DNA of 64,000 bases, from NCBI GenBank assembly GCA_964389625.1, contig CAYMEF010000001.1:5880-69879 (forward strand), given 5' to 3'. Each line of letters opens with the position of its first letter. Position 1 is the first letter of the stretch. This document shows positions 15,834 to 45,764 of this stretch, piece after piece. The translations under genes and the position numbers were made by a program. This DNA is from an uncultured Thermoplasmatales archaeon. GTDB taxonomy: Archaea > Thermoplasmatota > Thermoplasmata > Thermoplasmatales > GCA-001856825. The notes under the pieces are model-generated. The model made no database searches and was not told where the DNA came from. It saw only the letters and a list, made by a program, of their open reading frames with translations.

Positions 15834-15869
15834 GTGTTTTTTAACACTCACAATAGGAAAGAAGCAGAA

Positions 15870-27885: not shown

Positions 27886-27952
27886 ATTCATAGAAAAGCT
27901 ATTGCATTTAAGAAACGGTTATATCCCGAATGTGTTGTCAGAACTGACCGTT

Positions 27953-28415: not shown

Positions 28416-29900
28416 TCACTTGTTTCCGTATATCTGATAATACCAGCTCTTTCTGGCGTTCCCCGTAAGGTCGATGTAAACGTGCTTTAGAGAGGTAAAT
28501 TCTTCGATGGAATATCTGGAAGTGGAGGCACCAAACCCAGAACCCTTCATTGGGGACCACGGCATCTCGGAGGGTATCGGTACGTGATCGTTGATCCACA
28601 CAGTACCGAATCTCAGGTCCCTGGCAGCCATCATTGCATTCCTGACGTCCTTTGTCCATACCGATGATCCAAGTCCGTATACTACGTCATTTGCCTTTTC
28701 AATGACTTCATCGTACGTTTTGAATTTGAGCAAAACTGGGACAGGTCCGAATATCTCTTCCTGGACCACCCTTGCCTTGTTGTCATCGGTACCTAGCAGC
28801 ACAGGTTTTGTGAAGAACCCGGACTCAAAAGTGGTTTCCCCGTCCTCGTAGAGAACCTCCCCCTCCTTTCTTCCTATTTCTACGTATGACCTGACCTTAT
28901 TGAGTTGATCTGAAGAGATCAGAGGACCGACGTCTGTTGTTGGTTCGGTGGGGTTCCCGACCCTGATCTTCCCAATCTTTTCTATGAACATTTTCTTGAA
29001 TCTTTCGTAAGCTCCATCCTGAACGTAGATCCTGGTAGCTGCGGAACAGTCTTGGCCATTATTTACAAAGCTTCCGACAACTGCGCCCTCCGTGGCTGCT
29101 TCCAGGTCTGCGTCTTCAAATACAATGAATGGGGCCTTGCCTCCCAGTTCGAGAGAGAGCCTTTTTACGGAACTAGATGCAATGTTGAAAATCCTCTTAC
29201 CCACCTCGTTAGATCCCGTAAAAGCTATCATGTCAACTTTGTCACTCTTTGCAAGTTCTTCCCCAACCGTCCTACCCGGTCCCGTGATCACGTTGAAGAC
29301 ACCGCTCGGTATCCCTGCGTCCTTGACAGCATTGGCCAGCTCCAGAGTCGTCAGTGGCGTGTAGGTGGCGGGTTTTACCACAACCGTGTTCCCTGCGGCA
29401 ATGGCTGGGATAGCCCGCCAGGCGACCATCATAAGCGGATAATTCCATGGTGTTATCGCCGCCACTACTCCTACCGGTTCTCTCCGAAGGATGCTCGTTC
29501 CCTCGGAAACGTACTCCTTTGCAGCAACACCGTCTAAAATTCTTGCCGCTCCCGCGAAGAAACGGAGATTGTCTATTGTGTATGAAACGTCATAATCTAC
29601 AACCTGTTTGACTGGCTTCCCGGTATTTGCAAGTTCTGTTTCGCCAAATTTTATCATATCCTGTTCAAGGAACCTGCTGAGTCGCAGTATGGCCTCCGCC
29701 CGTCCCGCTGGTGAAAGTCTCGGCCATTCTCCCTTGTCAAAGGCATGCCTCGCAGCGTCTATGGCTGCCCTGGTATCTTCTAAGTTCCCCTTCTGGATCG
29801 TTGCAATCTGTTGCTCGTTCGCTGGATTGATTACACCTTCCTCCTCTTCCTTGCTGGATTTTACCCATTCATTATTTATAAACAAACCGTAGCTTTTCAT
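28416..29900 (-). CDS. NAD(P)-dependent aldehyde dehydrogenase (aminoaldehyde / betaine-aldehyde DH-like)
   Basis: ELGGKAP, GQDCSAATR, EEIFGPV. Start re-called to ATG 29900 (MKSYGLFINNEW). Confidence 0.9.
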   Translation of the reverse strand: MKSYGLFINNEWVKSSKEEEEGVINPANEQQIATIQKGNLEDTRAAIDAARHAFDKGEWPRLSPAGRAEAILRLSRFLEQDMIKFGETELANTGKPVKQVVDYDVSYTIDNLRFFAGAARILDGVAAKEYVSEGTSILRREPVGVVAAITPWNYPLMMVAWRAIPAIAAGNTVVVKPATYTPLTTLELANAVKDAGIPSGVFNVITGPGRTVGEELAKSDKVDMIAFTGSNEVGKRIFNIASSSVKRLSLELGGKAPFIVFEDADLEAATEGAVVGSFVNNGQDCSAATRIYVQDGAYERFKKMFIEKIGKIRVGNPTEPTTDVGPLISSDQLNKVRSYVEIGRKEGEVLYEDGETTFESGFFTKPVLLGTDDNKARVVQEEIFGPVPVLLKFKTYDEVIEKANDVVYGLGSSVWTKDVRNAMMAARDLRFGTVWINDHVPIPSEMPWSPMKGSGFGASTSRYSIEEFTSLKHVYIDLTGNARKSWYYQIYGNK

Positions 29901-29998
29901 TCTATTCAATAATCTCATAGCTACCCCAAAGATAAAATTTAGCATTTTACAGAGGTATTGGAAAAAAATCCAATTATGATCTCTAAATGTCTCTCTTT

Positions 29999-30991
29999 CT
30001 ACTCTGTTTTATTTTCTTGGGTGCCCCGCTCTTTGTAGTCGTACAACCAGCACTTCACTGAGCTCTTCCCGAAGTCAAAAGTGGGGGGGTCATTCTCACA
30101 AGCGATAAATCGCCTGCTGCACGAATTTTGATATATGCAACCGTGCCTGCATGGCTCTCCGGATTCGTGGGCCACATTGAACTCTTTGGAGGAGCCAAAT
30201 GAGAGGTTAGCGTTGATCAGGTCTGAAGTATACGGATGCTTCGGCCGCTCGAAGATTTCGAATGTATTCCCCTGCTCAAGTATCTGACCGTAGTAGAGGA
30301 CAGCAACCCGGTCGCACATGTACTTTATCACGTTGAGATCGTGTGTAATGAAGAGGTAGCTGATCGATAGTTCATTCTTAAGACGGGTGAGCAAGTTGAG
30401 AATCTGTGCCTGAATAGATACGTCAAGTGAACTGGTGGGTTCATCTAGGACCAGTATTTTCTTCTCTCCGATCAGCGTCCGGGCCAGACTCACTCTCTGT
30501 TTTTCGCCTCCGCTGAGTTCGGGTGGAAACGACTCGAGCTTGCTCTCCGGCAGCTCAACCAATTCGGCGGCATCTCTGATCTTGGTTTGGAGTTCTTTTT
30601 CAGTCAATTTTTCTTGATCTATAATGCCCTCGGCTATTATCTCAGAAACTGTGACCCTAGGGTTGAGGCTCCCGACGGGATCCTGAAAAACTATTCCTAT
30701 CTTCTTCCTCATTAGCAGGATGTCCTCACGCTTCTTGAAATCTATCTGTTTCCCATAGAGCTTGACCTTACAGTTCTTAGGCTTGTATATACCGACCAGT
30801 GTCCTGGCAAGCGTGGTCTTCCCTGATCCGGTCTCTCCAACTATGCCAAACGTCTCTCCCGCCTTGATGTTGAACGAGATAGAATCGAGGACCTTCTTCC
30901 ACTTTTCTGACTCGTCCGCTGTATGAAACATCTTGGTTTTCTTCTTGAACTGGAGAGAGAGGTTCTCGACCTCTAGAATGGGTTCATTCAT
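29999..30991 (-). CDS. Opp/Dpp-type ABC transporter ATP-binding protein (F-like)
   Basis: GETGSGKTT, LSGGEKQR, ILVLDEPT, and a C-terminal Cys-rich oligopeptide-type extension. ATG 30991 overlaps the upstream stop by 8 nt (ATGAATGA). Confidence 0.9.
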   Translation of the reverse strand: MNEPILEVENLSLQFKKKTKMFHTADESEKWKKVLDSISFNIKAGETFGIVGETGSGKTTLARTLVGIYKPKNCKVKLYGKQIDFKKREDILLMRKKIGIVFQDPVGSLNPRVTVSEIIAEGIIDQEKLTEKELQTKIRDAAELVELPESKLESFPPELSGGEKQRVSLARTLIGEKKILVLDEPTSSLDVSIQAQILNLLTRLKNELSISYLFITHDLNVIKYMCDRVAVLYYGQILEQGNTFEIFERPKHPYTSDLINANLSFGSSKEFNVAHESGEPCRHGCIYQNSCSRRFIACENDPPTFDFGKSSVKCWLYDYKERGTQENKTE

Positions 30992-31982
30992 AGAGCCAAC
31001 ACGCAACCTCCCTTTTGTCCATCTGCGTCTTGAGTTCTGGAACCTTGTTGCGGCATATCTCCATGACTCTGGGACACCTGGGATTGAAGGCGCAGCCTGG
31101 CGGCAGGTTTCTTAGATCTGGTGGAGCGCCTGCAGACACTCTGAGAATCCCATCGTTCAGGTAACCTTCTGGAACTGAGTCTTTCAGCATCTTTGTGTAC
31201 GGGTGGAGTGGATCTTTTAGGACCTCTTTCATCCTTCCCATTTCCACTACCTTTCCGGCATACATGACGTATACTCTGTCGCACATATTTGCCGCTACTT
31301 CGAGGTCATGAGTTATCAGGAGAATGCTCGACAGTACCTCCTCTTTCAAGCGGAGTATCAGGCTTATGATCTTCCTCTGAACTATTAGATCCAACCCAGT
31401 CGTGGGTTCATCTAGAATCAGTAGGTTTGGTTTCTGCACTAGAACCATTGCTATGGAAACTCTCTGCCTCATACCACCGGAGAGTTGATGCGGGTAAACG
31501 CTCAGGACCCCTTCCACATCCCTTATCATTACCTCATTCAAACTCTTCCTTATTATTGCCTCCTTTTCCTTCTTTCCAATTTTCTGTTCTCCTATGTTTA
31601 TTGCTTCTTCCATCTGGTCATGGACTGAATAAACTGGATTGAGTGAGGTCAGTGGTTCTTGGAAAATCATATTAATACCCTTTCCTCTGAAGTTTACCTT
31701 CTTGTCATTCCTGGGGTATATTTCCTTCCCATCGAAGCGTATTGTCCCTCCAGTTACCTTTGCTGGTGGCGTGTCCAAGACCCCTATTATGGCCTGAGCG
31801 AGCGTAGACTTCCCCGATCCGCTCTCACCCACAACGCCCACTACCTCTTCCTTACCCACTCTTACTGACACTCCCTTGAGGACTTCCACCGTTCTATCGA
31901 CAGTCTCGAAATTCACAGCAAGTCCATCTACTTCGAGAAGGTTATCGCTCAAATTGTCTCTATTGGGAATGGTAGCAGCCAT
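30984..31982 (-). CDS. Opp/Dpp-type ABC transporter ATP-binding protein (D-like)
   Basis: GESGSGKST, LSGGMRQR, LLILDEPT. Confidence 0.9.
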   Translation of the reverse strand: MAATIPNRDNLSDNLLEVDGLAVNFETVDRTVEVLKGVSVRVGKEEVVGVVGESGSGKSTLAQAIIGVLDTPPAKVTGGTIRFDGKEIYPRNDKKVNFRGKGINMIFQEPLTSLNPVYSVHDQMEEAINIGEQKIGKKEKEAIIRKSLNEVMIRDVEGVLSVYPHQLSGGMRQRVSIAMVLVQKPNLLILDEPTTGLDLIVQRKIISLILRLKEEVLSSILLITHDLEVAANMCDRVYVMYAGKVVEMGRMKEVLKDPLHPYTKMLKDSVPEGYLNDGILRVSAGAPPDLRNLPPGCAFNPRCPRVMEICRNKVPELKTQMDKREVACWLYE

Positions 31983-31992
31983 ATTAATTATC

Positions 31993-33144
31993 TTAGTTTG
32001 AGTCGAAGCTCTCTTCGGCCTTTATCTTGATGTCCCTCTTTCCGAGTTCAGCGAAGAATGGTTTGACGGGAACTATCTGCTCTGGGGGCTTTACCCCCTT
32101 CCCCTTTATAACACCAGTCATTATCATCTGAGCGATTATTGAACCGGGGACTCCAACTTCTTTCTGGGATGCAGAGACCTTCCACTTTTCATCATACTTG
32201 AAATATGCCCTCATCTCGACCTTCTTGGGTCTGCCTTCGTCTATTCCCTTAGCCGTGACTATTGTCATTTCGTAGTCCATAACCTGGACGTTCTCGGGGG
32301 GTGCAAACATATTCTGCGACTTGAGAAAATCGAACAGGAATTCCCTCGGGACGACCTCAGAGCCTCCAGCCTTGACCTTGTCCAGCCTTCCAAATCCTAT
32401 ATCCGTTAGGAACTTGAGCTTCTCGATTTCAGCGCTACCCTCCTTCCATTCTATATATTTAATCCCTTTTTCGATGAAACTCGCAGGGAGGGTCGCAATT
32501 TCGGAGTGAATAGACCTGAATATCTTGGCTTTCCCGATCTCCCATCCAAAGTCGTACTCCTCGCTAACCCCGAACGGATCTGATTCCACTATGCTGCCGT
32601 CAAAGTGTACCGCCTTCAGGGTGAGTTCGTCAAAGAGAGTGGAAGGGGACCAAGTGAAAAAGAGCTTCTGGTAGTTTGTCTTGTCGATCCACCCATCCCT
32701 GATTATTATCTCATCGACCTTGTCCATCTTGCTGACCGCGTAGCTGGCCATGATGTTAGAGATTCCAGGCTGTGCCCCCATCCCGATTATTGCCAATAGA
32801 CCTGCGTCCTTGAACTCCTGATCGAGCGTCAACTGCTCCAGTGTTATTCGATACAGACCTCCAAAATCAATGTAATTCGTCTTGGCCTCGAGTGCTGCCT
32901 TCATTATCTTCATATTGTGATAATACTGAACCGCGTTTATGACAACGTCAGCACCGCGAAGGGTCTTGACTAGGGAATCCTTGTCGTTAACATCCTGTTT
33001 GACGAATTTGACCCTAGGATCTCCAAAATCCAGATTTTTTACTATATCGGCAACTATTATCTCATCCATTTTATTATTTTCGATTAAATCAAATACTGCA
33101 CATCGACCCGTTAAACCCATTCCACCCAGTACTATAGCCTTCAC
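31993..33144 (-). CDS. Saccharopine dehydrogenase family protein (NADP-binding plus C-terminal domain)
   Basis: MKAIVLGGMGLTG Rossmann start, 383 aa. Family also includes lysine-forming saccharopine DH, carboxynorspermidine DH and homospermidine synthase. Confidence 0.75.
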   Translation of the reverse strand: MKAIVLGGMGLTGRCAVFDLIENNKMDEIIVADIVKNLDFGDPRVKFVKQDVNDKDSLVKTLRGADVVINAVQYYHNMKIMKAALEAKTNYIDFGGLYRITLEQLTLDQEFKDAGLLAIIGMGAQPGISNIMASYAVSKMDKVDEIIIRDGWIDKTNYQKLFFTWSPSTLFDELTLKAVHFDGSIVESDPFGVSEEYDFGWEIGKAKIFRSIHSEIATLPASFIEKGIKYIEWKEGSAEIEKLKFLTDIGFGRLDKVKAGGSEVVPREFLFDFLKSQNMFAPPENVQVMDYEMTIVTAKGIDEGRPKKVEMRAYFKYDEKWKVSASQKEVGVPGSIIAQMIMTGVIKGKGVKPPEQIVPVKPFFAELGKRDIKIKAEESFDSN

Positions 33145-33300
33145 AACACTATATTAAAATACTTAAATATAACAGTTTCCCTTTTTTGCAAAAAAATGTA
33201 AAAAAAATGAAATATAATTAGACAAATTTTAATCAAATACGCCTCTGAGAAAAAATAATATACCCTCTAGGAATATCAATCCGTATATGGTTGTGAAATT

Positions 33301-34677
33301 ATGGAGACCGGCGATGATGTTCATAAAGAAATTTTGAAAGTTCCAGAGAAGGCGAGAGTGTTTGACACGAGGAGGTCTCACAATCTCTTCAAAAAGACAA
33401 AAAAGTTGATACCCACCGGTGCTAGTTCCCTCATGAGGACGAGCTCATGGGACGAGTATCCCATATTCATGAGAAGGGCCAAGGGGACAAGGATGTGGGA
33501 TGTGGATGGAAACGAGTACATCGATTTCCTGATGGCATTTGGACCGTTGATAAACGGCCATGCTAACGAGAAAATAACTGCGGCTGTAAGGAAATACATA
33601 AAGAATGGAGATCTCTACGGTACTCCAAACGAACTAGAATACAAACTGGCAAGGGAGTTCAAGAAGTTTGTAAAGACACAAGACATGGTTACTTTTGCAC
33701 TCAGCGGATCGGATGCTACATTCAACGCGCTCAGGATTGCGAGGGCTGCTACAGGCAAAGACATGATTCTGAAGTTTGAGGGGCACTACCACGGACTTCA
33801 CGACTACGGAGCAGTATCTGTTGAGGCCCCACCTCAGGTTTCCGGCCTCAAGTGGTTCCCGAAGTCTCTACCCTATTCTGCCGGAATACCGCAGGGAGTT
33901 ATGGATACGGTAGTAGTTTCGTCCTGGAACGATCTCGAGAGCCTATCGAAGATACTAAGGATCAGAGGAAATGAGATCGCTGCAATAATAATGGAACCAA
34001 TAATGGCGAATTCCACGCTCATATCACCGGAACCAGAGTATTTGAAGGGTGTAAGAGAGCTAGCCGATGAGTACAACATTCTGTTGATATTCGACGAGGT
34101 GATAACTGGTTTCAGAGTTAGCGAGGGAGGCGCACAGAAGCTCTACGGAGTTACTCCAGATCTCTCTTCCTGGGCAAAGTCCCTCAGCAACGGGTACCCC
34201 ATATCTGCCGTCGCTGGTAAGAAGGAGTACATGGAACTGATAGGCAACGGCGTAGGTTACGGCGGCACCTATTTTGGAGTCCCGATATCCTTGACAGCAT
34301 CCATAACCAACTTGAAGATACTCGAAACTAACGAATTCGAGGGCTACAGTCACCTGGGTAGATTGACGAGAAGAATGGGAAGAGGTATAGAAGAAATAGC
34401 GGAGGATCTCGATGAGCCTATGTTTGTCAACTACGAAACGGGTCTGTTGACGTTCATCTTCACTGAACAGAAACGGGTCACAAACTATAGGGAAAGCATC
34501 ATAATGGACTGGAACAAATACAAGGGAGTCCAACAGAGAATGCTTCAGAAAGGAATATACTATCACCCCGACGGAGCGGAAAGAATCCCATTGTCTATGG
34601 TGCACACAGATGCCGACATTGATACGTTCCTGACTGGACTGAGAGATTCGATAAAGGATTACAACAGAGAGAACTGA
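33301..34677 (+). CDS. Class-III PLP aminotransferase (glutamate-1-semialdehyde aminomutase-like subgroup)
   Basis: SGSDATFNALRIAR, FDEVITGFR, WAKSLSNGYP. Confidence 0.8.
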   Translation: METGDDVHKEILKVPEKARVFDTRRSHNLFKKTKKLIPTGASSLMRTSSWDEYPIFMRRAKGTRMWDVDGNEYIDFLMAFGPLINGHANEKITAAVRKYIKNGDLYGTPNELEYKLAREFKKFVKTQDMVTFALSGSDATFNALRIARAATGKDMILKFEGHYHGLHDYGAVSVEAPPQVSGLKWFPKSLPYSAGIPQGVMDTVVVSSWNDLESLSKILRIRGNEIAAIIMEPIMANSTLISPEPEYLKGVRELADEYNILLIFDEVITGFRVSEGGAQKLYGVTPDLSSWAKSLSNGYPISAVAGKKEYMELIGNGVGYGGTYFGVPISLTASITNLKILETNEFEGYSHLGRLTRRMGRGIEEIAEDLDEPMFVNYETGLLTFIFTEQKRVTNYRESIIMDWNKYKGVQQRMLQKGIYYHPDGAERIPLSMVHTDADIDTFLTGLRDSIKDYNREN

Positions 34678-34837: not shown

Positions 34838-36205
34838 ATGTCAAATATGGCTGGAAATAATCCTGATGCTTCCAATGATGTTAGGAAAAATTGTACCGAT
34901 TTGACGTATGGTACGTGGAGAAAACAAGGTGGTTGGTCCCCGCTGGTAATACAGAAGGCAGAAGGAGTCTACTTCTCTGATTCTAATGGCAGGAATTACC
35001 TGGATTTTTCCTCCCAGCTCATGTGCTCGAATTTAGGCCACGGTAACCGAAGAATCAAGGATGCGATCGATGAACAACTTGACAAGTTTGAGTACGTACA
35101 GCCTGGATATGCAACAGAGATCAGGTCTGAAGTCTCCACTCTCCTCAAGGAGGTGCTTCCATCTACTCTGACGAAGTACTTCTTCGGCACATCGGGGACA
35201 GAGGCAAACGAGGCAGCGATAAAGACGGTCAGAATGTTTTTCCAGAGGGACAGGAAGACCAAGATAATCTCGAACTTCAATTCCTACCACGGGTCGACCT
35301 CTGGCAGCATAACGCTTACAGGGGACTTTAGGAGACTCCCGGTAGACACATACTATTCAGTCCCGGGGGTTGTACACTCTATACCTCCGTATTGCTACAG
35401 ATGCCCTCTGAAGCTGAAATTTCCGGATTGCGATCTGGCGTGTGCGGAATATAACCGATACTTGATCAAGAATGAAGGAAACATAGGGGGGATGATAGTC
35501 GAACCAGTCACGGGGACAAATGGGGTCATCATACCTCCGGATGGCTATCTTCAGAGGATAAGAGAGATCACCAAAGAAAACGACGTTCTATTGATCGCAG
35601 ACGAAGTCATGAGCGGTTGGGGTCGAACCGGAGCATGGTTTGCAGTCGAGAACTGGAATGTAGATCCAGACATCCTCACCACCGCAAAGGGAATCACCGG
35701 CGCCTATGTCCCTCTCTCCCTAATGGCAACTAGCAAGAGAATTGCGGATTATTTTGAGAACAATTATTTTGCGCATGGGCATACCTACGAGGCTCATCCC
35801 GTAGCACTGGCTGCGGCTAGGGCCGCTATAAATGAATACAAGGAGATGAAGCTCATTCAGAGATCGAGGGAATTGGGGAAGACGCTCGGCAAGAGACTTG
35901 AAGAGATCAAGGAGAGGCATAAATCGGTAGGGGACGTGAGGAGTATTGGTTTGTTCGGCGCAGTGGAGCTGGTGAAAGACCGGGAGAAGAGAACACCATT
36001 CAACACCTTCGAAGAAAAGTTGGAGGGTAAGCAGCTGATGACAGACAGGGTCTCTAAGAGCGCAATGGAAAGCGGTGTTTACATAAACAACTGGCTCAAT
36101 CACTTCGTAATTGCCCCTCCTCTTGTAATTTCAGAACGTGATCTTGAAAAGGGACTGAACACGCTGGACGAGAGCTTGAGAATATCTGACGGCGAGGCGA
36201 ATTGA
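34838..36205 (+). CDS. Class-III omega-amino acid:pyruvate-type aminotransferase
   Basis: GTSGTEANEAAIK, ADEVMSGWGRTG, TAKGITGAY (PLP Lys). Confidence 0.85.
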   Translation: MSNMAGNNPDASNDVRKNCTDLTYGTWRKQGGWSPLVIQKAEGVYFSDSNGRNYLDFSSQLMCSNLGHGNRRIKDAIDEQLDKFEYVQPGYATEIRSEVSTLLKEVLPSTLTKYFFGTSGTEANEAAIKTVRMFFQRDRKTKIISNFNSYHGSTSGSITLTGDFRRLPVDTYYSVPGVVHSIPPYCYRCPLKLKFPDCDLACAEYNRYLIKNEGNIGGMIVEPVTGTNGVIIPPDGYLQRIREITKENDVLLIADEVMSGWGRTGAWFAVENWNVDPDILTTAKGITGAYVPLSLMATSKRIADYFENNYFAHGHTYEAHPVALAAARAAINEYKEMKLIQRSRELGKTLGKRLEEIKERHKSVGDVRSIGLFGAVELVKDREKRTPFNTFEEKLEGKQLMTDRVSKSAMESGVYINNWLNHFVIAPPLVISERDLEKGLNTLDESLRISDGEAN

Positions 36206-37654: not shown

Positions 37655-37786
37655 CCTCCCCCGTTAAGCTATATTTCTAGCGGGACAATCCCACTTCTGG
37701 AAAAAATAGCAAAAAAAGTCAATATTCGAGACAAATTAATGGCAAACTTTAAGTTAATATATTGTTTTCATCATTGAAGATTTGAT

Positions 37787-39610
37787 ATGAAGCGTTCTTA
37801 TATCGCAATTATAGTGGTAGTTGTGGTAGTAATAGTAATCGGTTCTTCGGTGGCAGTCTATGAATACAACAATTCCAGTCGTAATAAGAAAACTACGCCC
37901 AACACACTAACGGTAGAGGAGTCTGCATTCCCGGACAGCCTTGATCCTGCTGTGACATTTTCAACGCCAGGCTGGGAAATATTGGATCAAGTTTATCAGA
38001 CGCTGATTGCTCCTGACAATTCGAGTCAGACCTCGTTCGTTCCTGTTTTAGCGACTAGCTGGACGGCATCATCCAATTACATGAATTATACGTTCGATCT
38101 GAGACACAACGTCACCTTCTCGAATGGCGACACGTTCGACGCTTACGTAATGTGGTATTCCCTCTATAGAGGAATGCTGCTTAATCAAGCACCGGAATTC
38201 ATTCTCGGCCAGAACTTGGCAGCCAATGGCACCTACGGAAACAACTCTTTCAACATAACGGCCAACACGTTGAATTCAATTAACTACACCAGCCCGAGTA
38301 CTTCGGATTTGTCCACAATGAGCAATCCTTTCCAATCGGTCCAGGTAGTGAACAAGTACGAGATTGTCATACATCTCGGCTCTGGGTACAATGGATATCT
38401 GCCGTACAATGCATTCTTGATGACACTGACGACTCCAATGGGAATGGCAGTTGATCCTGCGGTTGTAAAGGCCAATGGGGGAGTTGTAGCCGGTCAGACC
38501 AACCAGAACTTGTCTGGCTGGGCCATAGGCACCGGTTTCTACAAGCTCGGCTCTGTTGTTCAGGGGCAGAGTATCACCCTCGTTGAAAATCCCACTTACT
38601 GGGGAAAGAATATTCCTTCGGGTCAGCTCAACAATGCAATCAGCCCTCCGCACATAAAATACATAGTTCTAGAGTACAAGCCAACTTCTTCCATAATATC
38701 CGACCTCAAGGGCGGAAAGGCACAGATAGTTGAAGCTCCTGTCACGGATTATTCAGTCCTCAAGAGCATATCGGGAGTAACAGTCAACAAGCTTCCGATC
38801 CAGTTCGGGTCCTCCCAGAATTCTTTCTTTGTCTATATGGACCAGATTGGAAATTATGCATTCCAGAACATCGATGTAAGGAAGGCCGTGACCTATGCCA
38901 TCAACTACACCGGGATTATTTCGGGAGTATACGGCGGTCAAGCCCAGCAGTGGATTGGCCCGGTGCCGCCAGGCTTCGAGTACTACAATCAGAGCATCGG
39001 TTCCCTGACAATGTACTCCTATGATCCTGCAGCTGCCGCCCACTACCTAAACGATGCAGGTTACAGAGCTGTTCTGCCGGACGGGACAGTCCTTAAAGGA
39101 ACTCCATTCCCGACCTATGACTTCCTGTACGAATCTGACTCCACTTCCCAGACCCTGGCAGCAAGGATAATTTCCAACGATCTGGCTGCAATCGGGATCA
39201 ACGTGACCCTGGCAGGACAGCCCGCGAGCACTTTCACTGCGATCGTCTATGCCTATGCCTCGAGTTCGACACAGTACCCAATTGGGTTGAATTACTACAC
39301 CGAAGATTATTCGGCATCGGTAGATTATGTGTCAGCTCTTGCGGCTGGATACTACAACGGCACTTCGGATTACTACAACTCGACAGTTTTCAACTGGACG
39401 GTAAATGCGAGCACTTCCTTCAACAATGCGTCTATAATACAGAACCTGAGCTACATAACGAACGAAATGTATCAGAACTACACGATGGCATGGCTGTACG
39501 TACCTTACCTACTCAGTGTTAATGCTAACGATGTCACCGGAATGATACCCAATACCGCTGGGTCCGGTGCGGGATACTTTATGTTCTACAATACTGTGCA
39601 GTACACGTGA
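37787..39610 (+). CDS. ABC transporter substrate-binding protein, family 5 (Opp/Dpp/Nik type), membrane-anchored
   Basis: N-terminal TM anchor IAIIVVVVVVIVIG, family-5 SBP length, and position upstream of two permease genes. Confidence 0.8.
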   Translation: MKRSYIAIIVVVVVVIVIGSSVAVYEYNNSSRNKKTTPNTLTVEESAFPDSLDPAVTFSTPGWEILDQVYQTLIAPDNSSQTSFVPVLATSWTASSNYMNYTFDLRHNVTFSNGDTFDAYVMWYSLYRGMLLNQAPEFILGQNLAANGTYGNNSFNITANTLNSINYTSPSTSDLSTMSNPFQSVQVVNKYEIVIHLGSGYNGYLPYNAFLMTLTTPMGMAVDPAVVKANGGVVAGQTNQNLSGWAIGTGFYKLGSVVQGQSITLVENPTYWGKNIPSGQLNNAISPPHIKYIVLEYKPTSSIISDLKGGKAQIVEAPVTDYSVLKSISGVTVNKLPIQFGSSQNSFFVYMDQIGNYAFQNIDVRKAVTYAINYTGIISGVYGGQAQQWIGPVPPGFEYYNQSIGSLTMYSYDPAAAAHYLNDAGYRAVLPDGTVLKGTPFPTYDFLYESDSTSQTLAARIISNDLAAIGINVTLAGQPASTFTAIVYAYASSSTQYPIGLNYYTEDYSASVDYVSALAAGYYNGTSDYYNSTVFNWTVNASTSFNNASIIQNLSYITNEMYQNYTMAWLYVPYLLSVNANDVTGMIPNTAGSGAGYFMFYNTVQYT

Positions 39611-39619
39611 TAGGGTGAT

Positions 39620-40627
39620 GTGTTGGAGGGGAAGCAGGAGTTACTCTACTTCATCCTGAAGAGGATCGCGGTATCAGTACTGGTGATCCTCGGGACAATT
39701 TTTGTAGTTTTTTTGATATCTCACTATCTCAACAGCAACCCCGCGGCACTATGGGCTGGACCCAAAGCAAGACCATCAACCATAAAGTCAGTCATCCTCA
39801 GATACGGACTGAATCAACCGGTCTATATCCAGCTCTACAATTTCATAAAGGACTTCTTTACTGGAAATTTTGGAACAGATCCGGTTACTGGTCGATCAAT
39901 AAGTTCAGAGATATTCTTCTTTTTGCCGAATACGATAGCACTTGTCCTTACCGCACTGTTGGTCATAGTAGTAAGTGGCGTTGGGCTTGGATATCTTGCT
40001 GCCATAAACTTTGGCACAAAGAAGGATTCCATGATCAGGATACTCTACACATCTGCGTGGGCATCCCCTACATTTCTCGTGAGCATACTCGCGTTGATTT
40101 TGTTCACCTCATATTTCCCTATTTTTCCATCAGGTGGAATGTTCAATCCAACAGAAATACCTCAACCGGGATTCGTAGGGGCGATCTCTCACTTCTCGGA
40201 TGGGTTGTATCACATCGTGCTACCTGCCCTTACGCTGGCTTTTCTAAACTTTGGGATCATAACCAGGATCAGCAGGAACGGAATACTTGGGGTCAAGTGG
40301 CTTCCCTACGTTAAGTCTGCGAAAGCCAGAGGACTGGATCAGAAGAGCATAAACAGGCGTCACATTCTGAGGAATGGACTCGTGGAGAGCAATACTGTCA
40401 TTGCAGTCATGTTCGGATGGTTAATGACAGGGGATGTCATCGTTGAGGAAATATTTGGCTGGCCCGGGATAGGGAAATTCGCTTATACGGCCATTTCTGG
40501 AGACGACTACCCTGTATTGATATTCATCGTGATAACATTCACCATCTTGGTCATTTTGGCCAACCTGATTGCAGACATAATGTATGCCGTACTGGACCCA
40601 AGAATTAGACTGGGAGGGGAAGAATGA
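39620..40627 (+). CDS. ABC transporter permease (OppB/DppB-like)
   Basis: 6 TM segments and an EAA-like loop (KSAKARGL). GTG start. Confidence 0.9.
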   Translation: MLEGKQELLYFILKRIAVSVLVILGTIFVVFLISHYLNSNPAALWAGPKARPSTIKSVILRYGLNQPVYIQLYNFIKDFFTGNFGTDPVTGRSISSEIFFFLPNTIALVLTALLVIVVSGVGLGYLAAINFGTKKDSMIRILYTSAWASPTFLVSILALILFTSYFPIFPSGGMFNPTEIPQPGFVGAISHFSDGLYHIVLPALTLAFLNFGIITRISRNGILGVKWLPYVKSAKARGLDQKSINRRHILRNGLVESNTVIAVMFGWLMTGDVIVEEIFGWPGIGKFAYTAISGDDYPVLIFIVITFTILVILANLIADIMYAVLDPRIRLGGEE

Positions 40628-41553
40628 GGCGACAGTCGCTAAAAAAGTCTCTTGGAATCGTTACCGGCAACCGCCTGTCTTCAACTGGGCTTGTGATAAT
40701 ACTTGTCTTCATTGTCATAGCCATCCTGTACACAGTACTTGGGAACCGTATAATTCCGTACAACCCCCTGAGCATGAATCTAGCAGACGTGAATGCACCG
40801 CCGAGTTTCACTCACCTATTTGGTACAGATAATTCTGGTCGTGATATCTTTTCCTTGATCATTGCTGCGATCCCAATAGACATTGGTATTTCCATATTCA
40901 TCGTCGTAGTTTCGGCACTGATCGGACTCTTCCTTGGAACCATTGCCGGATACTTCAGGGGAATCGCGGAGGAGGTTATAATGAGGATAACGGACCTATT
41001 CTTTGCCTTCCCTCCACTGGTTATGTCCCTCGCAATAGCGGCCACTCTGGGAAAGAGCCTGTTGTTCGCTGCATTTTCAATCATTTTCGTGTGGTGGCCT
41101 CCCTACGTGAGACTAGTCAGGAGTAGCACCCTTCAAGTTTCTACTAGCGATTTCATCACTATGTCAAAGGTCTTGAACACAAGGTTCCGGAAGATACTCT
41201 TCAAAGGAATACTGCCGAACATAATGACTACACTCGTCGTGTACGCAACAATGGACATAGGGACTGCGATGCTTACCCTCTCCACCCTGGGCTTCCTGAA
41301 CATCGGGATTCCGGTCCAGCAACCGGAACTGGGTCTCATGGCCTCTGTACTAAACACCAATCTCTATCTGGATCCGCTGGAAGGTCTGATTCCTGCCGTA
41401 TTCATTTTCATAATAGTAATGGGATTCAGTCTGACGGGCGAGGGTTTGGCCGAAGTAATCGATCCGAACATTAGGTCTCACCTTTTCTCGAGGAAAAAGA
41501 GACTGGAAGAATTCAAGAAAACGACTGAAGGAAAATCCAAGGCGGTCGATTGA
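40624..41553 (+). CDS. ABC transporter permease (OppC/DppC-like)
   Basis: FGTDNSGRDIFS N-terminal motif and a 4-nt overlap with the preceding permease. Confidence 0.9.
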   Translation: MRRQSLKKSLGIVTGNRLSSTGLVIILVFIVIAILYTVLGNRIIPYNPLSMNLADVNAPPSFTHLFGTDNSGRDIFSLIIAAIPIDIGISIFIVVVSALIGLFLGTIAGYFRGIAEEVIMRITDLFFAFPPLVMSLAIAATLGKSLLFAAFSIIFVWWPPYVRLVRSSTLQVSTSDFITMSKVLNTRFRKILFKGILPNIMTTLVVYATMDIGTAMLTLSTLGFLNIGIPVQQPELGLMASVLNTNLYLDPLEGLIPAVFIFIIVMGFSLTGEGLAEVIDPNIRSHLFSRKKRLEEFKKTTEGKSKAVD

Positions 41554-42366
41554 TCACCTCTTTATCTCTGGAGGATCGCCTCTCTTCCTGAGCGAAGGTA
41601 CCGGTGCAATGATCAGGACGATAACGAGAACCAAAATGATGGCCATGATCTCGTTGCTCTGGACTGGGATGTATTTGAGGTACAGGGTGTTGCCCGACAG
41701 CGCCGAAATCCAGAGTTTCAATACGCCTAGAACCGGAAGATATCCGACTGCATACCCCAAGACCTGTGAACTGTTGACTAGAGTATTGTCGATACCTAAA
41801 TTTTGGTCAGCACCCATAGTCCAGTTCCCTGTAGGATAGGAGGAACTCGCAAAATTGTGATCTCCCATTGTGACGAACCCTGTTTCCCCGATATAATTCT
41901 GAAGACTGACCAAGAGATTCTTGTGGGAATATCCCACATCAGTTAAGTAAACGTTCGACCCCTGAATCGTAAGCCATGATGGGTTGTAGTTGCCGTAGAG
42001 TATGGGAGTTGTACCCTTCCAACCTTCAACGTAAAAGATTGCTCTATGTATCACCAGCTCCCCGAGATAATAATTCTTGTAAACTATAACGTTACCGAAT
42101 TCACCGTAATTTGTTGGATGTCCTTTTTCGCGTGAAACGAGATACGTCTGGACGTCCTGGAAAGAATTTATTTTCTTTACTCCAACTATGTCACCCGTAT
42201 TGATTACTCCAAACACAAAGTTGTTTCCGTGTTGCATCGAGCTTGACTCAACTATGACAGCCGGTGGCCAGTTTTCGGTATAGAAATAGAGCGACGAGAA
42301 AATTACAGCTATGATCGCCAGTACGGCGATGACACTTATGACTTCGCCCTTGTATTTGAAAGTCAC
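41554..42366 (-). CDS. Type I signal peptidase, archaeal/eukaryal Sec11 (S26B) type
   Basis: N-terminal TM segment, then ESSSM (Ser box), TGDIV, VIHRA (His box), MGDHN, plus a C-terminal TM segment. Confidence 0.65.
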   Translation of the reverse strand: MTFKYKGEVISVIAVLAIIAVIFSSLYFYTENWPPAVIVESSSMQHGNNFVFGVINTGDIVGVKKINSFQDVQTYLVSREKGHPTNYGEFGNVIVYKNYYLGELVIHRAIFYVEGWKGTTPILYGNYNPSWLTIQGSNVYLTDVGYSHKNLLVSLQNYIGETGFVTMGDHNFASSSYPTGNWTMGADQNLGIDNTLVNSSQVLGYAVGYLPVLGVLKLWISALSGNTLYLKYIPVQSNEIMAIILVLVIVLIIAPVPSLRKRGDPPEIKR

Positions 42367-42470
42367 TGGAGGTCTAGAATAACAACGATTAAATCATTTG
42401 CCATGAAACGTCGGTGGAAAAAATTCAGAAAACAAAATATTTTATTAATAAGTGTTGCATCACAATTGTA

Positions 42471-42965
42471 ATGAAAGGGGAAAAAATTACAATAGAACAG
42501 CTGAATGAACTTGACAGGAAGATATTGCTAAGCATTTTCGACACGAGAGAAACGAACCTCAGTGTTATATCTAAGAAGGTTGGGGTTTCCAAATCGACCG
42601 TCCACAACAGACTAAAAAAAATGAAGAGCAGTAATTTTCTGAAGGGAGTGATTCCGCTCATCAACCAGAACAATCTAGATAAGAGTATAACGGCATTCTC
42701 CTTGATCAACGCGAAGTATGGCCCAGAGTATGGTGAGGCAATAGGTGCAAGGATTGCCAAGATCAAAGGAGTTTGGGCCGTCTACTTTGTCCTTGGGAGT
42801 ATAGATTTTGTGGCCCTGATAAGAGCGAGGAACAAGGCGGAGCTTGGAACTATTGTTAATGAGCTCTCCAGGACCCCTGGGGTTGAGAGGAGCGAGACCA
42901 TCATGGCCCTAAATACAGCAAAGGAAGATTTTCCAGAATCACTCAAGCTCGTCATAAAGGAATAG
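42471..42965 (+). CDS. Lrp/AsnC-family transcriptional regulator
   Basis: LDRKILLSIFDTRETNLSVISKKVGVSKSTVHNRLKKM followed by a RAM domain. ATG 42471 lies about 28 nt after an AT-rich TATA region (42435-42450). Confidence 0.8.
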   Translation: MKGEKITIEQLNELDRKILLSIFDTRETNLSVISKKVGVSKSTVHNRLKKMKSSNFLKGVIPLINQNNLDKSITAFSLINAKYGPEYGEAIGARIAKIKGVWAVYFVLGSIDFVALIRARNKAELGTIVNELSRTPGVERSETIMALNTAKEDFPESLKLVIKE

Positions 42966-43074
42966 ACGAGAAATAAGCTGTAGAATACTCCAGTTTTGAA
43001 GAAATTTTTCATTAAACTTCCTTTTTGAGGGAAAGTTATTCACGTTTAATATACCAGAATTGCATTGATGAGAT

Positions 43075-44451
43075 ATGTCTGTTCAAACTTCAAGTAGACT
43101 GAGCCTAGAAAAAGCTCCATTATTGAAGACAAGGGTACCCGGTCCCAAGTCCCTTGAATTGCTTGACGTCCAGGATAAACTCGAGACTTCTAGCAGGTCA
43201 TATACGGGCTTCTTCAAATTCGCAATAGACTATGGAAAGGGCTCTACTGTCGTCGACGTTGATGGAAACGTATTCATCGATTGGTTCGGCGGAGTCTCAG
43301 TTCTTAACCTTGGGCATGGTCATCCTGCCGTGGTGGATGCAATAAAAAGGCAGGTAGATAAATTGACCCACATTACTGAAGTACCCACGGAGGCTAGAAT
43401 AAGGTACCTCAAGACCCTGAACTCCGTTCTACCGGGAAAAATGAAGGACAACTCCAAAATATTCATGACAGTCACGGGAGCGGAAGCATGCGAGGCCGCC
43501 GTTTCGCTCGCTAGGTTCAGCTCGAAGAAACCTACCATAATAGCATTCACGGGATCATACCACGGTATAGCCGGAGGGATTGTTGGTGCTACCTCAAACT
43601 ATCACTACAGGGAGTACGCGGGATTTTCGACGCAGAATTACGTATACGCCCCGTATCCATACCCATACAGGTTCTCTGGAGACTCCAAGAGAGAGGACAT
43701 CTCAAAAGTGGTCGTCGAGAGGATAGAAGAGATGATCAACGATCCGTATTCGGGAGTACCACCGGTGGGAGGTATCCTTGTCGAACCCATCCAGGGAGAG
43801 GGGGGTTACATCATTCCCCCAGACGATTTCTTGCCTATGCTCAGAGAAATTTGTGACAAGTACTCGATTCCGTTGATTATAGATGAGGTCCAGAGTGGCA
43901 TCGGCAGAACGGGAAAGATGTGGGAAACGGAGTACCACAACGTAACTCCGGACATAATGTGCATATCAAAGAGCATTGGCGGAGGAATACCCTTTTCTTC
44001 GGTAGCATACAGAAAGGATTTCGATGAGCTTCCCAAGGCATTTCATCTGGGAACGTACAGAGGAAATCCACTTGGACTAGCGGCTGGTGCCGCAATACTG
44101 GACGTCGTAAGAGAGGAGAGATTTCTGGAGAGAGTTCGGTCAAAGGGACGTTATTTGGTCAACAGGTTCGAGGAGATACAAGCAGACTCCAAGAACATAG
44201 GCGAGGTCAGAGGTCGTGGATATATGATCGCAAACGAGATCGTCAAGAATAAGCAGCAAAAGACTCCCGGTACTGAACTCGCGGGAAAGATAAGGGAAGA
44301 AATGTTCAAGAGAGGAGTCCTGATGCACACCTGCGGACACTACGGGAATGTTATGCGTTTCATGGCACCGCTCACGATAGAGGACGACCTGTTGGAACAG
44401 GGATTATCAATCTTCAAGGAAGCAATAAAAGAGACGGAAGTCAGAGCATGA
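43075..44451 (+). CDS. gabT: Class-III aminotransferase, 4-aminobutyrate aminotransferase-like
   Basis: TGAEACEAAV, IDEVQSGIGRTG, SKSIGGGIP. Confidence 0.8.
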   Translation: MSVQTSSRLSLEKAPLLKTRVPGPKSLELLDVQDKLETSSRSYTGFFKFAIDYGKGSTVVDVDGNVFIDWFGGVSVLNLGHGHPAVVDAIKRQVDKLTHITEVPTEARIRYLKTLNSVLPGKMKDNSKIFMTVTGAEACEAAVSLARFSSKKPTIIAFTGSYHGIAGGIVGATSNYHYREYAGFSTQNYVYAPYPYPYRFSGDSKREDISKVVVERIEEMINDPYSGVPPVGGILVEPIQGEGGYIIPPDDFLPMLREICDKYSIPLIIDEVQSGIGRTGKMWETEYHNVTPDIMCISKSIGGGIPFSSVAYRKDFDELPKAFHLGTYRGNPLGLAAGAAILDVVREERFLERVRSKGRYLVNRFEEIQADSKNIGEVRGRGYMIANEIVKNKQQKTPGTELAGKIREEMFKRGVLMHTCGHYGNVMRFMAPLTIEDDLLEQGLSIFKEAIKETEVRA

Positions 44452-45764
44452 GCATAGTCATACGGGACCCATATTCTGGAAGCGTTATAGAGACTATAGA
44501 GACTGACAACGTTGATTCCGCACTCAACAAGATTAGTGAAACGAAGTTAGCGCAAAAAGATTGGATGAAGAGTCTCGATGAGAGGCTGGATTACTTCAAG
44601 GAAACTGTTAGGCCGAACTTTGTCAAGTATACAGATGAACTCGCTCTGATCATGACTCAGGAGATGGGTAAACCAATATCACAGAGCGTCTCCGAGGTAA
44701 AGAAGAGCATAAAGCTCCTGGATTATCTGATAGAGAATGCACCAGGAATATTTAGCGCGGAAGAGATAAAGACGGAGGCATTCAAGAGTTATCTTAGATT
44801 TGATCCAATTGGCACTGTGATGTGCATAGAGCCGTGGAACTTCCCAGTGTGGCAGGTTGCAAGGGCTGCATTTCCAGCGCTATTGGCGGGCAATGGCGTA
44901 GTCCTGAAGCACGCGAGCTTAGTCGCTGGAGTTTCTCTAAAACTTCAGGAGATCGTTGATTCAAAAATCTTCAGGAGCCTCATCGTCGATGGAAAAACGG
45001 CTACATCACTCATACGACAAGTGGACGGAGTGGCTTTTACGGGTTCCACTCAAGTTGGATCCGGGATAGCATCGGAGGCTGGGAAAGAACTCAAACACGT
45101 AGTGATGGAACTCGGTGGTTCTGATCCTTTCATAATTCTGGACTCTGCCAACATAGAGTCAGCGGCAAAGGCAGCCGCGATTGGGAGGCTTCAAAACAAT
45201 GGGCAGAGTTGCATTGCATCGAAAAGGTTCTTGGTCCAAGAGAACGTCTACGAAGAGTTCAAGAGACTTGCGGAGGAAGAATTTTCAAAGGTAGTCATAG
45301 GCGATCCAAAGAAGAAAGAAACGTACATCGGTCCGCTGTCCTCGGTGGAACAGAAACGCTCGGTGGAAGAACAGATCAATTACCTGAAATCCAGAGGAAA
45401 AGTAGTTTTCCTCGGGGAGGGACAAGGGAATATCGTGCCACCCACTATTGCCGAACTGGACGAGAATTATCAGGAAGAAATATTTGGACCGGTTGCCGTC
45501 TTGAGGAAGTTCAGGAACAGGGATGAAGCGGTAAAGATTGCAAACGAAACACCCTACGGCCTAGGGACATCTATCTGGGGTGAAAAAAGTGAAGCAGAGA
45601 CGTTGGTGAGCGATATCGAAGCAGGAATGGTCTTCATAAATAGCATCGTATTCTCGGACCCGAGACTTCCGTTTGGAGGCGTAAAGAAGAGTGGACTAGG
45701 AAGAGAACTTTCAAAGTATGGAAGCAGGGAATTCACAAATATGAAAACTGTCTGGGTCAATTAG
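44448..45764 (+). CDS. gabD: Aldehyde dehydrogenase, succinate-semialdehyde dehydrogenase-like (short form)
   Basis: ELGGSDP, GQSCIASKR, EIFGPV. ATGA overlap with gabT. Confidence 0.75.
   Translation: MSIVIRDPYSGSVIETIETDNVDSALNKISETKLAQKDWMKSLDERLDYFKETVRPNFVKYTDELALIMTQEMGKPISQSVSEVKKSIKLLDYLIENAPGIFSAEEIKTEAFKSYLRFDPIGTVMCIEPWNFPVWQVARAAFPALLAGNGVVLKHASLVAGVSLKLQEIVDSKIFRSLIVDGKTATSLIRQVDGVAFTGSTQVGSGIASEAGKELKHVVMELGGSDPFIILDSANIESAAKAAAIGRLQNNGQSCIASKRFLVQENVYEEFKRLAEEEFSKVVIGDPKKKETYIGPLSSVEQKRSVEEQINYLKSRGKVVFLGEGQGNIVPPTIAELDENYQEEIFGPVAVLRKFRNRDEAVKIANETPYGLGTSIWGEKSEAETLVSDIEAGMVFINSIVFSDPRLPFGGVKKSGLGRELSKYGSREFTNMKTVWVN

Follow-up and report, generated by a model that had tools for sequence, protein, structure and literature searches.

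Within a 64,000-nt stretch of DNA from an uncultured Thermoplasmatales archaeon (the window, meaning the whole stretch that was analyzed), a block of ~17 kb at positions 28416 to 45764 combines a saccharopine-dehydrogenase-family dehydrogenase (SDH-like), three class-III aminotransferases (AT1, AT2 and AT3), three aldehyde dehydrogenases (ALDH1, MMSDH and ALDH3) and an ATP-binding cassette (ABC) importer. Our analyses revealed that this block is layered: an ancient core made of the SDH-like gene, AT1, the importer and usually ALDH1 carries an AT2–MMSDH add-on in the I-plasma clade and has a genus-level neighbor, Lrp2–AT3–ALDH3. We propose, at a probability of roughly 45%, that it is an amine-catabolic cluster acting on polyamines and omega-amino acids. 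This reading draws on the SDH-like protein, which by sequence profile and predicted fold lies closest to carboxyspermidine dehydrogenase (CASDH), on the AT2–MMSDH pair and ALDH1, and on polyamine-type (Pot) transporter genes that stand beside SDH-like orthologs in distant archaea. The source organism is an I-plasma-like Thermoplasmatales archaeon of mine drainage; its SDH-like protein is 89% identical to the I-plasma counterpart, and the stretch is present in DNA runs of mine-drainage and hot-spring metagenomes.

Genes were called from a listing of open reading frames (ORFs) combined with Pfam and NCBIfam/curated-profile searches of the window proteins. The gene content that an earlier note on this DNA had listed was recovered in full, as follows.

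27875–28408, plus strand: Lrp1, Lrp/AsnC regulator (PF01037, PF13404), convergent with ALDH1
28416–29945, minus strand: ALDH1, aminoaldehyde (aminobutyraldehyde/betaine-aldehyde) dehydrogenase-like (PF00171, 523.8 bits), last gene of its operon
29999–31006, minus strand: Dpp/Opp-type ABC ATPase (ABC_tran + oligo_HPY)
30984–31982, minus strand: Dpp/Opp-type ABC ATPase (ABC_tran + oligo_HPY)
31993–33144, minus strand: SDH-like, saccharopine-dehydrogenase-family dehydrogenase (PF03435 + PF16653)
33145–33300, no strand: divergent promoter region between SDH-like and AT1, its middle part conserved in relatives, with an A-rich element
33301–34677, plus strand: AT1, HemL/GSAM-family class-III aminotransferase (TIGR00713 and GntE, both below cut-off)
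34838–36205, plus strand: AT2, putative omega-amino-acid aminotransferase (PRK06062, below cut-off; PDB matches)
36206–37654, plus strand: MMSDH, CoA-acylating (methyl)malonate-semialdehyde dehydrogenase (TIGR01722, above cut-off)
37787–39610, plus strand: substrate-binding protein (SBP_bac_5)
39620–40627, plus strand: permease (BPD_transp_1)
40624–41553, plus strand: permease (BPD_transp_1)
41554–42366, minus strand: conserved membrane protein of 270 aa, hydrophobic at both ends, without a Pfam or NCBIfam match
42414–42965, plus strand: Lrp2, Lrp/AsnC regulator (PF01037, PF13412)
43075–44451, plus strand: AT3, omega-aminotransferase, GabT/ornithine-aminotransferase/archaeal racemase-like (PRK05769 and TIGR00700, below cut-off)
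44448–45764, plus strand: ALDH3, succinate-semialdehyde-dehydrogenase-like (PF00171; PRK09406, below cut-off)

The SDH-like gene, both ATPase genes and ALDH1 follow one another on the minus strand with a spacing of 10 nt, a 23-nt overlap and a spacing of 53 nt, and look like one operon. Across 156 nt, a plus-strand set of AT1, AT2, MMSDH, the binding protein and the two permeases diverges from the SDH-like gene, and the AT2–MMSDH pair, an insertion into this core operon, separates AT1 from the binding-protein gene. In the assembly (1.51 Mb, 65.7% complete) there are ∼10 class-III aminotransferase genes and ∼9 aldehyde dehydrogenase genes, so that ∼0.1 of each would be expected per 17 kb; the three aminotransferases and three aldehyde dehydrogenases observed here are far above chance. 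The GC content of the block (0.44 to 0.48) lies inside the range of the window (0.42 to 0.51). The block is thus a gene cluster, and the "17-kb island" of the earlier note is not an island in composition. Among the block enzymes, MMSDH alone passed a curated family cut-off.

The SDH-like protein belongs to the saccharopine dehydrogenase superfamily, scoring 95.6 bits against PF16653 (cut-off 31) and 68.3 bits against PF03435 (cut-off 25.1). A profile built from 53 members of the SDH-like family and searched against solved structures retrieved CASDH structure 8deb with an E-value of 3.4e-45, followed by 4ina (7e-41), 4rl6 (5e-39) and the H. pylori CASDH 8h4z (1e-36). L-Lysine 6-dehydrogenase (LysDH) from Pyrococcus horikoshii (PH1688, 3abi) was matched more weakly, at 8.9e-22, as was saccharopine reductase, at 8e-11. 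The AlphaFold2 model of the protein (pLDDT of 95.6), compared by Foldseek, gave template-modeling (TM) scores of 0.82 to 0.87 with CASDH and carboxynorspermidine dehydrogenase (CANSDH) structures, with which it shares a three-domain saccharopine-dehydrogenase fold, 0.76 to 0.79 with LysDH (0.79 for 3abi, of the same fold), 0.72 to 0.80 with saccharopine enzymes, and 0.54 to 0.67 with homospermidine synthase (HSS). By sequence profile and by the fold of this model, the SDH-like protein is closest to CASDH (3e-45 and TM 0.86), and the grouping with LysDH or LYS1/LYS9 that the earlier note had named as fatal to a polyamine role was not seen. A homospermidine-synthase-like identity was rejected, as HSS was not retrieved by the 53-member profile in the search of solved structures and gave the weakest fold match.

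In CASDH, His228 serves as the general base, Glu230 and Ser144 form a proton relay, and Glu188 and Glu229 position aspartate semialdehyde, and the H-E-E sequence is reported to be missing from both LysDH and saccharopine reductase (PMC10413350). H213-S214-E215 of the SDH-like protein aligns with H228-E229-E230 of CASDH and E173 with E188, and the family carries Ser or Thr at the Ser144 position. The full CASDH/CANSDH set (His228-Glu229-Glu230 with Glu188 and Ser144) is broken at one place, Glu229, whose counterpart is Ser in 53 of 53 aligned family members; H213-S214-E215 is invariant, and we refer to the family as the H-S-E type. Since the His, the relay Glu, Glu188 and the Ser/Thr are kept, the catalytic machinery appears CASDH-like. 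D33, at the end of β2, replaces the NADP-phosphate-binding Ser-Arg of BfCASDH. An Asp at the end of β2 of a Rossmann fold points to NAD, which suggests that the SDH-like enzyme probably uses NAD. Sequence identity to CASDH/CANSDH is 20 to 23%, and, unlike those enzymes, the SDH-like protein is encoded among importer, aminotransferase and aldehyde dehydrogenase genes and has no CASDC partner that we could find. Specifically, the carboxy(nor)spermidine decarboxylase gene (nspC/CASDC, TIGR01047) gave no match in this genome (65.7% complete), and none of 30 relatives scored over the cut-off of 409, the best relative reaching 52 bits; the SDH-like protein scored 57.9 bits against the carboxynorspermidine synthase family NF043000 (cut-off 800); and a classical spermidine synthase, SpeE, is present in the genome. 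A biosynthetic role as CASDH is thus unlikely and was set aside. The placement of the gene among an importer, aminotransferases and aldehyde dehydrogenases suggests that the enzyme would run in the oxidative direction. We propose from these signatures that it is an NAD-dependent amine (C–N bond) dehydrogenase of a CASDH-like, H-S-E type. Its chemistry would then be like that of P. horikoshii LysDH, an archaeal NAD-dependent amine dehydrogenase that converts a C–N bond to an aldehyde, although LysDH is the weaker profile match and is reported to be without the H-E-E-type motif that the SDH-like protein partly keeps.

The opposite direction would give a different pathway, in which AT1 turns an imported diamine into an aminoaldehyde and the CASDH-like enzyme condenses it reductively with a second amine, yielding a homospermidine- or norspermidine-type triamine. 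Such polyamine salvage or remodeling agrees with the characterized CASDH branch, all members of which are reductive, condensing enzymes (PMC10413350), and the loss of Glu229 would suit an aldehyde without an alpha-amino-carboxylate group. In one Caldarchaeales locus (L070), moreover, the ortholog adjoins a S-adenosylmethionine (SAM) decarboxylase and a true CASDH-like paralog. However, an aldehyde-oxidizing ALDH lies within the conserved core, MMSDH and a succinate-semialdehyde-dehydrogenase-like gene are attached to it in this lineage, the Asp33 signature suggests NAD over NADPH, and SpeE is already encoded in the genome. We therefore give remodeling little credence.

AT1 is the second core enzyme. 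Its best families were GntE (405 bits, cut-off 525) and HemL (TIGR00713, 373.6 bits, cut-off 527.3), so that it stays below the threshold for HemL proper, the enzyme of tetrapyrrole synthesis, and its best solved relatives are glutamate-1-semialdehyde aminomutases (GSAMs; E-values of 7e-86 to 7e-76). All three class-III aminotransferases named in the earlier note are present, and the one at 33301 belongs to the HemL/GSAM family. The genome contains four HemL-like genes, and a separate hemL lies on contig C12 in a hemB-hemA-hemD-hemC-hemL operon adjoining uroporphyrinogen decarboxylase. This rules out AT1 as the housekeeping HemL and indicates that AT1 is a paralog recruited to the cluster; the earlier note had named HemL activity among possible objections, and AT1 is of the HemL family, although not the housekeeping enzyme. 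AT1 has the pyridoxal phosphate (PLP) lysine of GSAM as well as residues equivalent to its Arg32 and Glu406, whose roles we take to be those in the Synechococcus GSAM structure; unlike HemL, it has a longer gating-loop segment and lies outside the heme operon. As a separate observation, the hemL of contig C12 (C12:10873–12060; L093:6874–8061) matches the HemL model in two pieces, skipping model positions 145 to 175, and shows a gap of ∼28 residues in the gating-loop region relative to its paralogs, with its frame open throughout.

The remaining enzymes could be placed in omega-amino-acid metabolism with differing precision. ALDH1 was closest to the aminobutyraldehyde dehydrogenase family PRK13473, which it narrowly missed (569.6 bits, cut-off 615), and scored 441.8 bits against TIGR03374 (cut-off 909.3); a PDB search at E 1e-120, a threshold that was too strict, returned no match. 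These scores agree with the earlier description of ALDH1 as aminoaldehyde-dehydrogenase-like. Further ALDH1 copies, with 74 to 76% identity, were seen elsewhere in the genomes, including contig C104 of this genome. AT2 scored 406.8 bits against PRK06062 (cut-off 472), and its PDB matches comprised the taurine:2-oxoglutarate aminotransferase 6jix (5e-85) and SpuC-type and beta-alanine:pyruvate transaminases, consistent with an omega-amino-acid aminotransferase of the beta-alanine, taurine or polyamine:pyruvate type. MMSDH exceeded the TIGR01722 cut-off (494.1 against 448.5 bits), and its start codon immediately follows the AT2 stop. The two genes thus abut as a beta-alanine-type pair, as had been noted before. 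AT3 scored 406 bits against PRK05769 (cut-off 552) and 331 against TIGR00700 (cut-off 506.65), matched PDB entry 7vno (1e-82), annotated as a hypothetical 4-aminobutyrate aminotransferase, and had diaminobutyrate aminotransferase (DABA-AT) families among its profile matches. ALDH3, the gene of which overlaps that of AT3 by 4 nt, scored 381.3 bits against PRK09406 (cut-off 730) and 253 against TIGR01780 (cut-off 646). With both under the curated cut-offs, AT3 and ALDH3 do not qualify as a GabT/GabD pair, and AT2, AT3 and ALDH3 stayed below every curated cut-off.

The importer is complete, with one SBP_bac_5 binding protein, two BPD_transp_1 permeases and two ABC_tran + oligo_HPY ATPases, so that all five components of the Opp/Dpp-type system proposed earlier were found, split over the two divergent operons. 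The binding protein showed weak similarity to NikA or peptide binders (NCBIfam, PDB), too weak for a ligand to be assigned. A PotABCD system is missing from the window, and a search of the assembled genome (65.7% complete) turned up no gene resembling PotB, PotC or PotD. The NikA, metallophore and opine-type binders among the best of these weak matches bring to mind another possible substrate, an opine-like secondary amine with a carboxy-aminopropyl group, for example carboxy(nor)spermidine or a metallophore of the nicotianamine type. Exact reversal of the CASDH reaction would then release aspartate semialdehyde, which ALDH1 would oxidize to aspartate or AT1 convert to diaminobutyrate. The position of CASDH as nearest relative, with retention of the catalytic residues, the counterpart in AT1 of the carboxylate-binding Arg of GSAM, and the DABA-AT families among the AT3 matches would all fit. 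We nevertheless regard this pathway as improbable: Glu229, which is proposed to position aspartate semialdehyde in CASDH, is invariantly Ser, the binding-protein similarities do not carry a ligand assignment, such compounds are not known to be available in the habitat, and the AT2–MMSDH pair is left unexplained.

A scan of species-representative genomes yielded at least 409 SDH-like relatives, of which 80 loci were examined. Among the close loci, all 15 whose flanks were long enough had a HemL-family aminotransferase no more than 10 kb away from the SDH-like gene. Of 47 distant loci, 37 had such an aminotransferase, 27 a Dpp-type ABC importer and 22 an ALDH1-like gene. In the I-plasma clade (65 to 89% identity), the entire order from Lrp2 to Lrp1 is syntenic, with AT1, AT2 and MMSDH in all 15 loci with adequate flank and ALDH1 in about half. 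SDH-like orthologs were present in 13 of 18 same-genus genomes and, at E 1e-40, in none of 12 genomes from other families of the order. In Cuniculiplasma, the ortholog (55%) adjoins a class-III aminotransferase, importer genes and further aldehyde dehydrogenase genes. The 45% ortholog of Thermogymnomonas is accompanied by AT1, importer genes and a match to Lrp2, and the 10 kb on either side yielded no match to ALDH1. More distant Thermoplasmata, mostly from soil (SDH-like 40 to 45%), carry a unit of SDH-like, AT1-like (47 to 51%), two permeases, two ATPases, a binding protein and, closing the unit, ALDH1-like (47 to 50%) genes. An Amidohydro_3 gene and the gene of a conserved 214-residue protein, both of which may belong to the pathway, come before this unit. 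Within Nitrososphaerales, the SDH-like gene occurs with an AT1-like gene (L040), with a Dpp-type transporter (L048) or with both (L052).

The AT2 and MMSDH best matches were near the SDH-like gene in one distant locus (L037), and the AT2 best match alone in two others (L002, L072). In L002 (SDH-like 45%), the aldehyde dehydrogenase after the AT2-like gene is split into three ORFs of 84, 303 and 107 aa (7564–9066) and is probably a pseudogene. All five same-genus genomes compared have AT3 at a distance of ∼10 kb from the SDH-like gene, a class-III aminotransferase adjoins Lrp2 in one 66% relative, and AT3 is absent from the distant cores; only in these five genomes and the 66% relative did AT3–ALDH3 turn up next to Lrp2. 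Because the core is widespread, AT2–MMSDH is found in the I-plasma clade and AT3–ALDH3 is a genus-level feature, the block is layered, and the single co-localized "supercluster" envisaged in the earlier note gives way to a smaller unit of wide conservation: SDH-like, AT1 and importer, with ALDH1 in part. In L102 (6166–9942) and ∼20 related loci of soil Thermoplasmata, the genes upstream of the core keep the order Lrp, glutamine-synthetase-family gene, Amidohydro_3 (525 aa) and the gene for the 214-aa protein. The glutamine-synthetase gene was considered as a gamma-glutamylpolyamine synthetase and was not used as evidence, since it is 72 to 83% conserved, like housekeeping neighbors.

This distribution bears on whether the genes belong together at all. 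Independent aminotransferase/aldehyde dehydrogenase pairs for osmolyte or amino-acid turnover (taurine, ectoine-derived diaminobutyrate, GABA) might by chance lie beside a peptide importer. The best solved relative of AT2 is indeed a taurine:2-oxoglutarate aminotransferase, acid-mine-drainage biofilms contain taurine and probably ectoine and hydroxyectoine (PMC3604775), and AT3–ALDH3 stands outside the widely conserved core. A chance assembly is nonetheless improbable, as archaeal phyla share the combination of SDH-like gene, HemL-family aminotransferase and importer even though the importer type varies, the AT2–MMSDH pair interrupts the core operon, with AT1 on one side and the binding-protein gene on the other, and the Lrp2 best match travels with the core in rearranged relatives.

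The link to polyamines comes from other phyla, where SDH-like orthologs (42 to 44%) and a HemL-family aminotransferase stand beside PotD/F-, PotB/H-, PotC/I- and PotA-like genes: this was seen in Caldarchaeales (L099/L060, L063, L070) and at one locus of Bathyarchaeia (L044). PotA was assigned above its cut-off (TIGR01187, 375.1 against 355.6), and the other Pot components are best matches under their cut-offs. A second Bathyarchaeia locus (L061) has just a PotA-type ATPase ∼9 kb from the SDH-like gene and no HemL-family aminotransferase. L063 repeats the Thermoplasmata core (two HemL-family aminotransferases, SDH-like and an aldehyde dehydrogenase) with a Pot-type importer. L070 has a SAM decarboxylase directly upstream (119.5 against a cut-off of 75.65) and a second SDH-family gene with a true H-E-E motif, which is CASDH-like. 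In L098, by comparison, APC permeases lie on both sides of the SDH-like/aminotransferase pair in place of an ABC importer, and L002 and L037 each have an APC amino-acid permease ∼8.5 kb away from their SDH-like genes. Across loci, the pair is thus found with importers of three kinds that include the canonical polyamine type, which argues for a small amine rather than an oligopeptide. The L070 region as a whole (positions 1–16641, from a metagenome-assembled genome of Caldarchaeum subterraneum) looks like a dense polyamine locus, with two PotABCD-type sets, a GabT-like aminotransferase, the H-E-E CASDH-like gene, the SAM decarboxylase, the H-S-E ortholog and the HemL-family aminotransferase in 17 kb.

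A competing reading is lysine or peptide catabolism, lysine degradation having been the alternative that the earlier note offered. Here, the Dpp importer would bring in peptides, the SDH-like enzyme would act as a lysine 6-dehydrogenase producing 2-aminoadipate semialdehyde, ALDH1 would oxidize this product, the aminotransferases would take the amino acids that result, and the other aminotransferase/aldehyde dehydrogenase pairs would be generic omega-amino-acid enzymes. LysDH 3abi is the second-nearest solved relative, "lysine 6-dehydrogenase" appears in the source annotations of some relatives, the importer is of a peptide type, APC amino-acid permeases occur in L098, L002 and L037, and I-plasma has been described as an amino-acid scavenger (PMC3750248). 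CASDH is, however, clearly closer than LysDH by both profile and fold, and the H-x-E catalytic motif kept in the family is reported absent in LysDH (PMC10413350). Moreover, a LysDH would render the tightly linked aminotransferase redundant, malonate semialdehyde is no product of lysine breakdown, and the Pot-type transporters and SAM decarboxylase of the distant loci would go unexplained. Lysine or peptide catabolism is thus weakened to an unlikely explanation, which we still place ahead of the other alternatives.

The polyamine/omega-amino-acid reading offers a place for every enzyme of the block, as the earlier note had foreseen, each step being inferred along with the substrate and the direction of the dehydrogenase. 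The binding-protein-dependent importer would take up an amine, most likely a polyamine, for example spermidine, or a related tri- or diamine. The CASDH-like enzyme, probably with NAD, would oxidize a C–N bond in the reverse of the CASDH reaction type, and hydrolysis would release an aminoaldehyde and a shorter amine. AT1, as a HemL-family PLP enzyme, would convert the amine or aminoaldehyde partner, and ALDH1 would yield omega-amino acids, beta-alanine and/or GABA. In this lineage, AT2–MMSDH could carry beta-alanine through malonate semialdehyde to acetyl-CoA, and the Lrp2–AT3–ALDH3 unit could convert a GABA-like omega-amino acid to a dicarboxylate, succinate. The gene content, family assignments, conserved neighborhoods and retained active-site motif are the observed basis of this scheme.

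Bacterial routes for such compounds include the Pseudomonas polyamine:pyruvate transaminase SpuC, beta-alanine:pyruvate transaminase with malonate-semialdehyde dehydrogenase, and E. coli PatA/PatD and GabT/GabD. The cluster follows the same logic of aminotransferase, aminoaldehyde dehydrogenase, omega-amino-acid aminotransferase and semialdehyde dehydrogenase; the structures matched by AT2 include transaminases of the SpuC and beta-alanine:pyruvate types, and MMSDH is above its cut-off. Unlike the bacterial gene sets, it contains no gamma-glutamylation enzymes, amine oxidase or SpdH-type enzyme, its proposed entry steps would be made by a CASDH-like dehydrogenase and a HemL-family enzyme, and its importer is Dpp-type. 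The cluster is thus a variation on known amine-catabolic logic, built around an uncharacterized CASDH-like clade.

Several points weigh against a polyamine substrate or against the breadth of its support. The importer in the window is Dpp/Opp-type and not Pot-type, with a binding protein that weakly resembles NikA or peptide binders. ALDH1 is kept variably within the genus: one genome (G012:C1:66018–67079) has a copy truncated to residues 156 to 509, and in at least three others the cluster lacks the gene. With its counterparts of Arg32 and Glu406, AT1 would be better suited to a substrate that bears a carboxylate than to a simple diamine, and the invariant Glu229-to-Ser replacement means that the substrate differs from that of CASDH without telling in what way. 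The SDH-like family is known from sequence and predicted structure alone, and the characterized members of the CASDH branch are all reductive and biosynthetic. The HemL-family aminotransferases of the Pot-type loci are 33 to 40% identical to AT1, about the same as true HemL, so that their orthology to AT1 is uncertain. Finally, most of the loci come from a few clades and are kin rather than independent observations. Together with the layered structure of the block, these points keep the polyamine/omega-amino-acid route proposed in the earlier note below even odds, in spite of the CASDH-closest dehydrogenase, the Pot-type neighbors in distant archaea, AT2–MMSDH and ALDH1.

In a more far-reaching form of the polyamine reading, the H-S-E clade would represent a polyamine (secondary-amine) dehydrogenase of a kind not yet described, dependent on NAD and independent of oxygen. 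Combined with a PLP enzyme derived from GSAM and with an aminoaldehyde dehydrogenase, it would form a widespread archaeal entry route into polyamine catabolism in Thermoplasmata, Nitrososphaerales, Caldarchaeales and some Bathyarchaeia, fed by Dpp- or Pot-type importers. We consider this broader claim rather doubtful. Known bacterial polyamine routes use oxidases, gamma-glutamylation, acetylation or direct transamination, and to our knowledge no dedicated polyamine-degradation route is known for Thermoplasmata or the other archaea that carry the module. Our literature search found none in these groups, and no mention of the cluster in work on Thermoplasmatales, Cuniculiplasma, Lutacidiplasmatales or acid-mine plasmas. 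If the reading is correct, a CASDH-type dehydrogenase running in reverse would be a new entry reaction for polyamine breakdown, and a family of at least 409 relatives in species-representative genomes, now labeled saccharopine or lysine dehydrogenase, would gain a function. If the substrate is instead lysine or peptides, the cluster would be an ordinary amino-acid scavenging locus. Cultured carriers (Thermogymnomonas acidicola, and Cuniculiplasma by the record's own name) allow direct testing.

Lrp/AsnC regulators flank the block on both sides, as described earlier, each with a helix-turn-helix and an AsnC_trans_reg domain. Lrp1 is syntenic with the cluster flank in the I-plasma clade. The Lrp2 best match stays with the transporter and SDH-like genes in three rearranged loci (L021, L022, L032), and a 63% identical match in Thermogymnomonas (L058) also lies beside cluster genes; Lrp2 is likely the cluster regulator. 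An A-rich element, TCCC..TT.TG.AAAAAA..G.AAAAAAA, occurs at 33178–33206, in the region between SDH-like and AT1, and at 37689–37717, upstream of the binding-protein gene. At up to three mismatches these are the only two sites in the genome, the pattern having been derived from the two copies themselves. It may be a candidate Lrp operator. The exact pattern was not found in relatives at the same tolerance, where looser A-rich similarity was seen, so that its support for co-regulation is weak, and no comparable element was seen upstream of AT3. In a small metatranscriptome, short contigs fell inside AT2, MMSDH and the binding-protein gene (0 differences) and Lrp2 (1 difference). As assembled contigs that carry no expression level, may include DNA carry-over and are uninformative for uncovered parts, they indicate, weakly, the presence of cluster sequences in an RNA library and nothing more.

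For the membrane protein at 41554–42366 (minus strand), an Atlas lead pointed to Peptidase_S26/Sec11 with a score of 0.89, and the protein is syntenic with the cluster in the I-plasma clade (58 to 73% identity). It is possibly signal-peptidase-I-like and probably not catabolic.

At least five more SDH-family genes lie outside the window in the same genome (contigs C2, C7, C34, C56 and C88). Two of these contigs, C56 (L095:205–7106) and C2 (L094:6123–13149), carry further paralogous modules, each with an SDH-family gene without the catalytic His (350 and 380 aa), a class-III aminotransferase (455 to 464 aa) and a HemL-family aminotransferase (∼443 aa). The C56 module continues with CoA-transferase A and B subunits, a thiolase and then an HTH_10 regulator; the C2 module has a confirmed thiolase and HTH_10 regulator, and its CoA-transferase positions are taken by two ORFs of the corresponding size. 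Thus, the pairing of SDH-family and HemL-like genes is a repeated theme in this genome.

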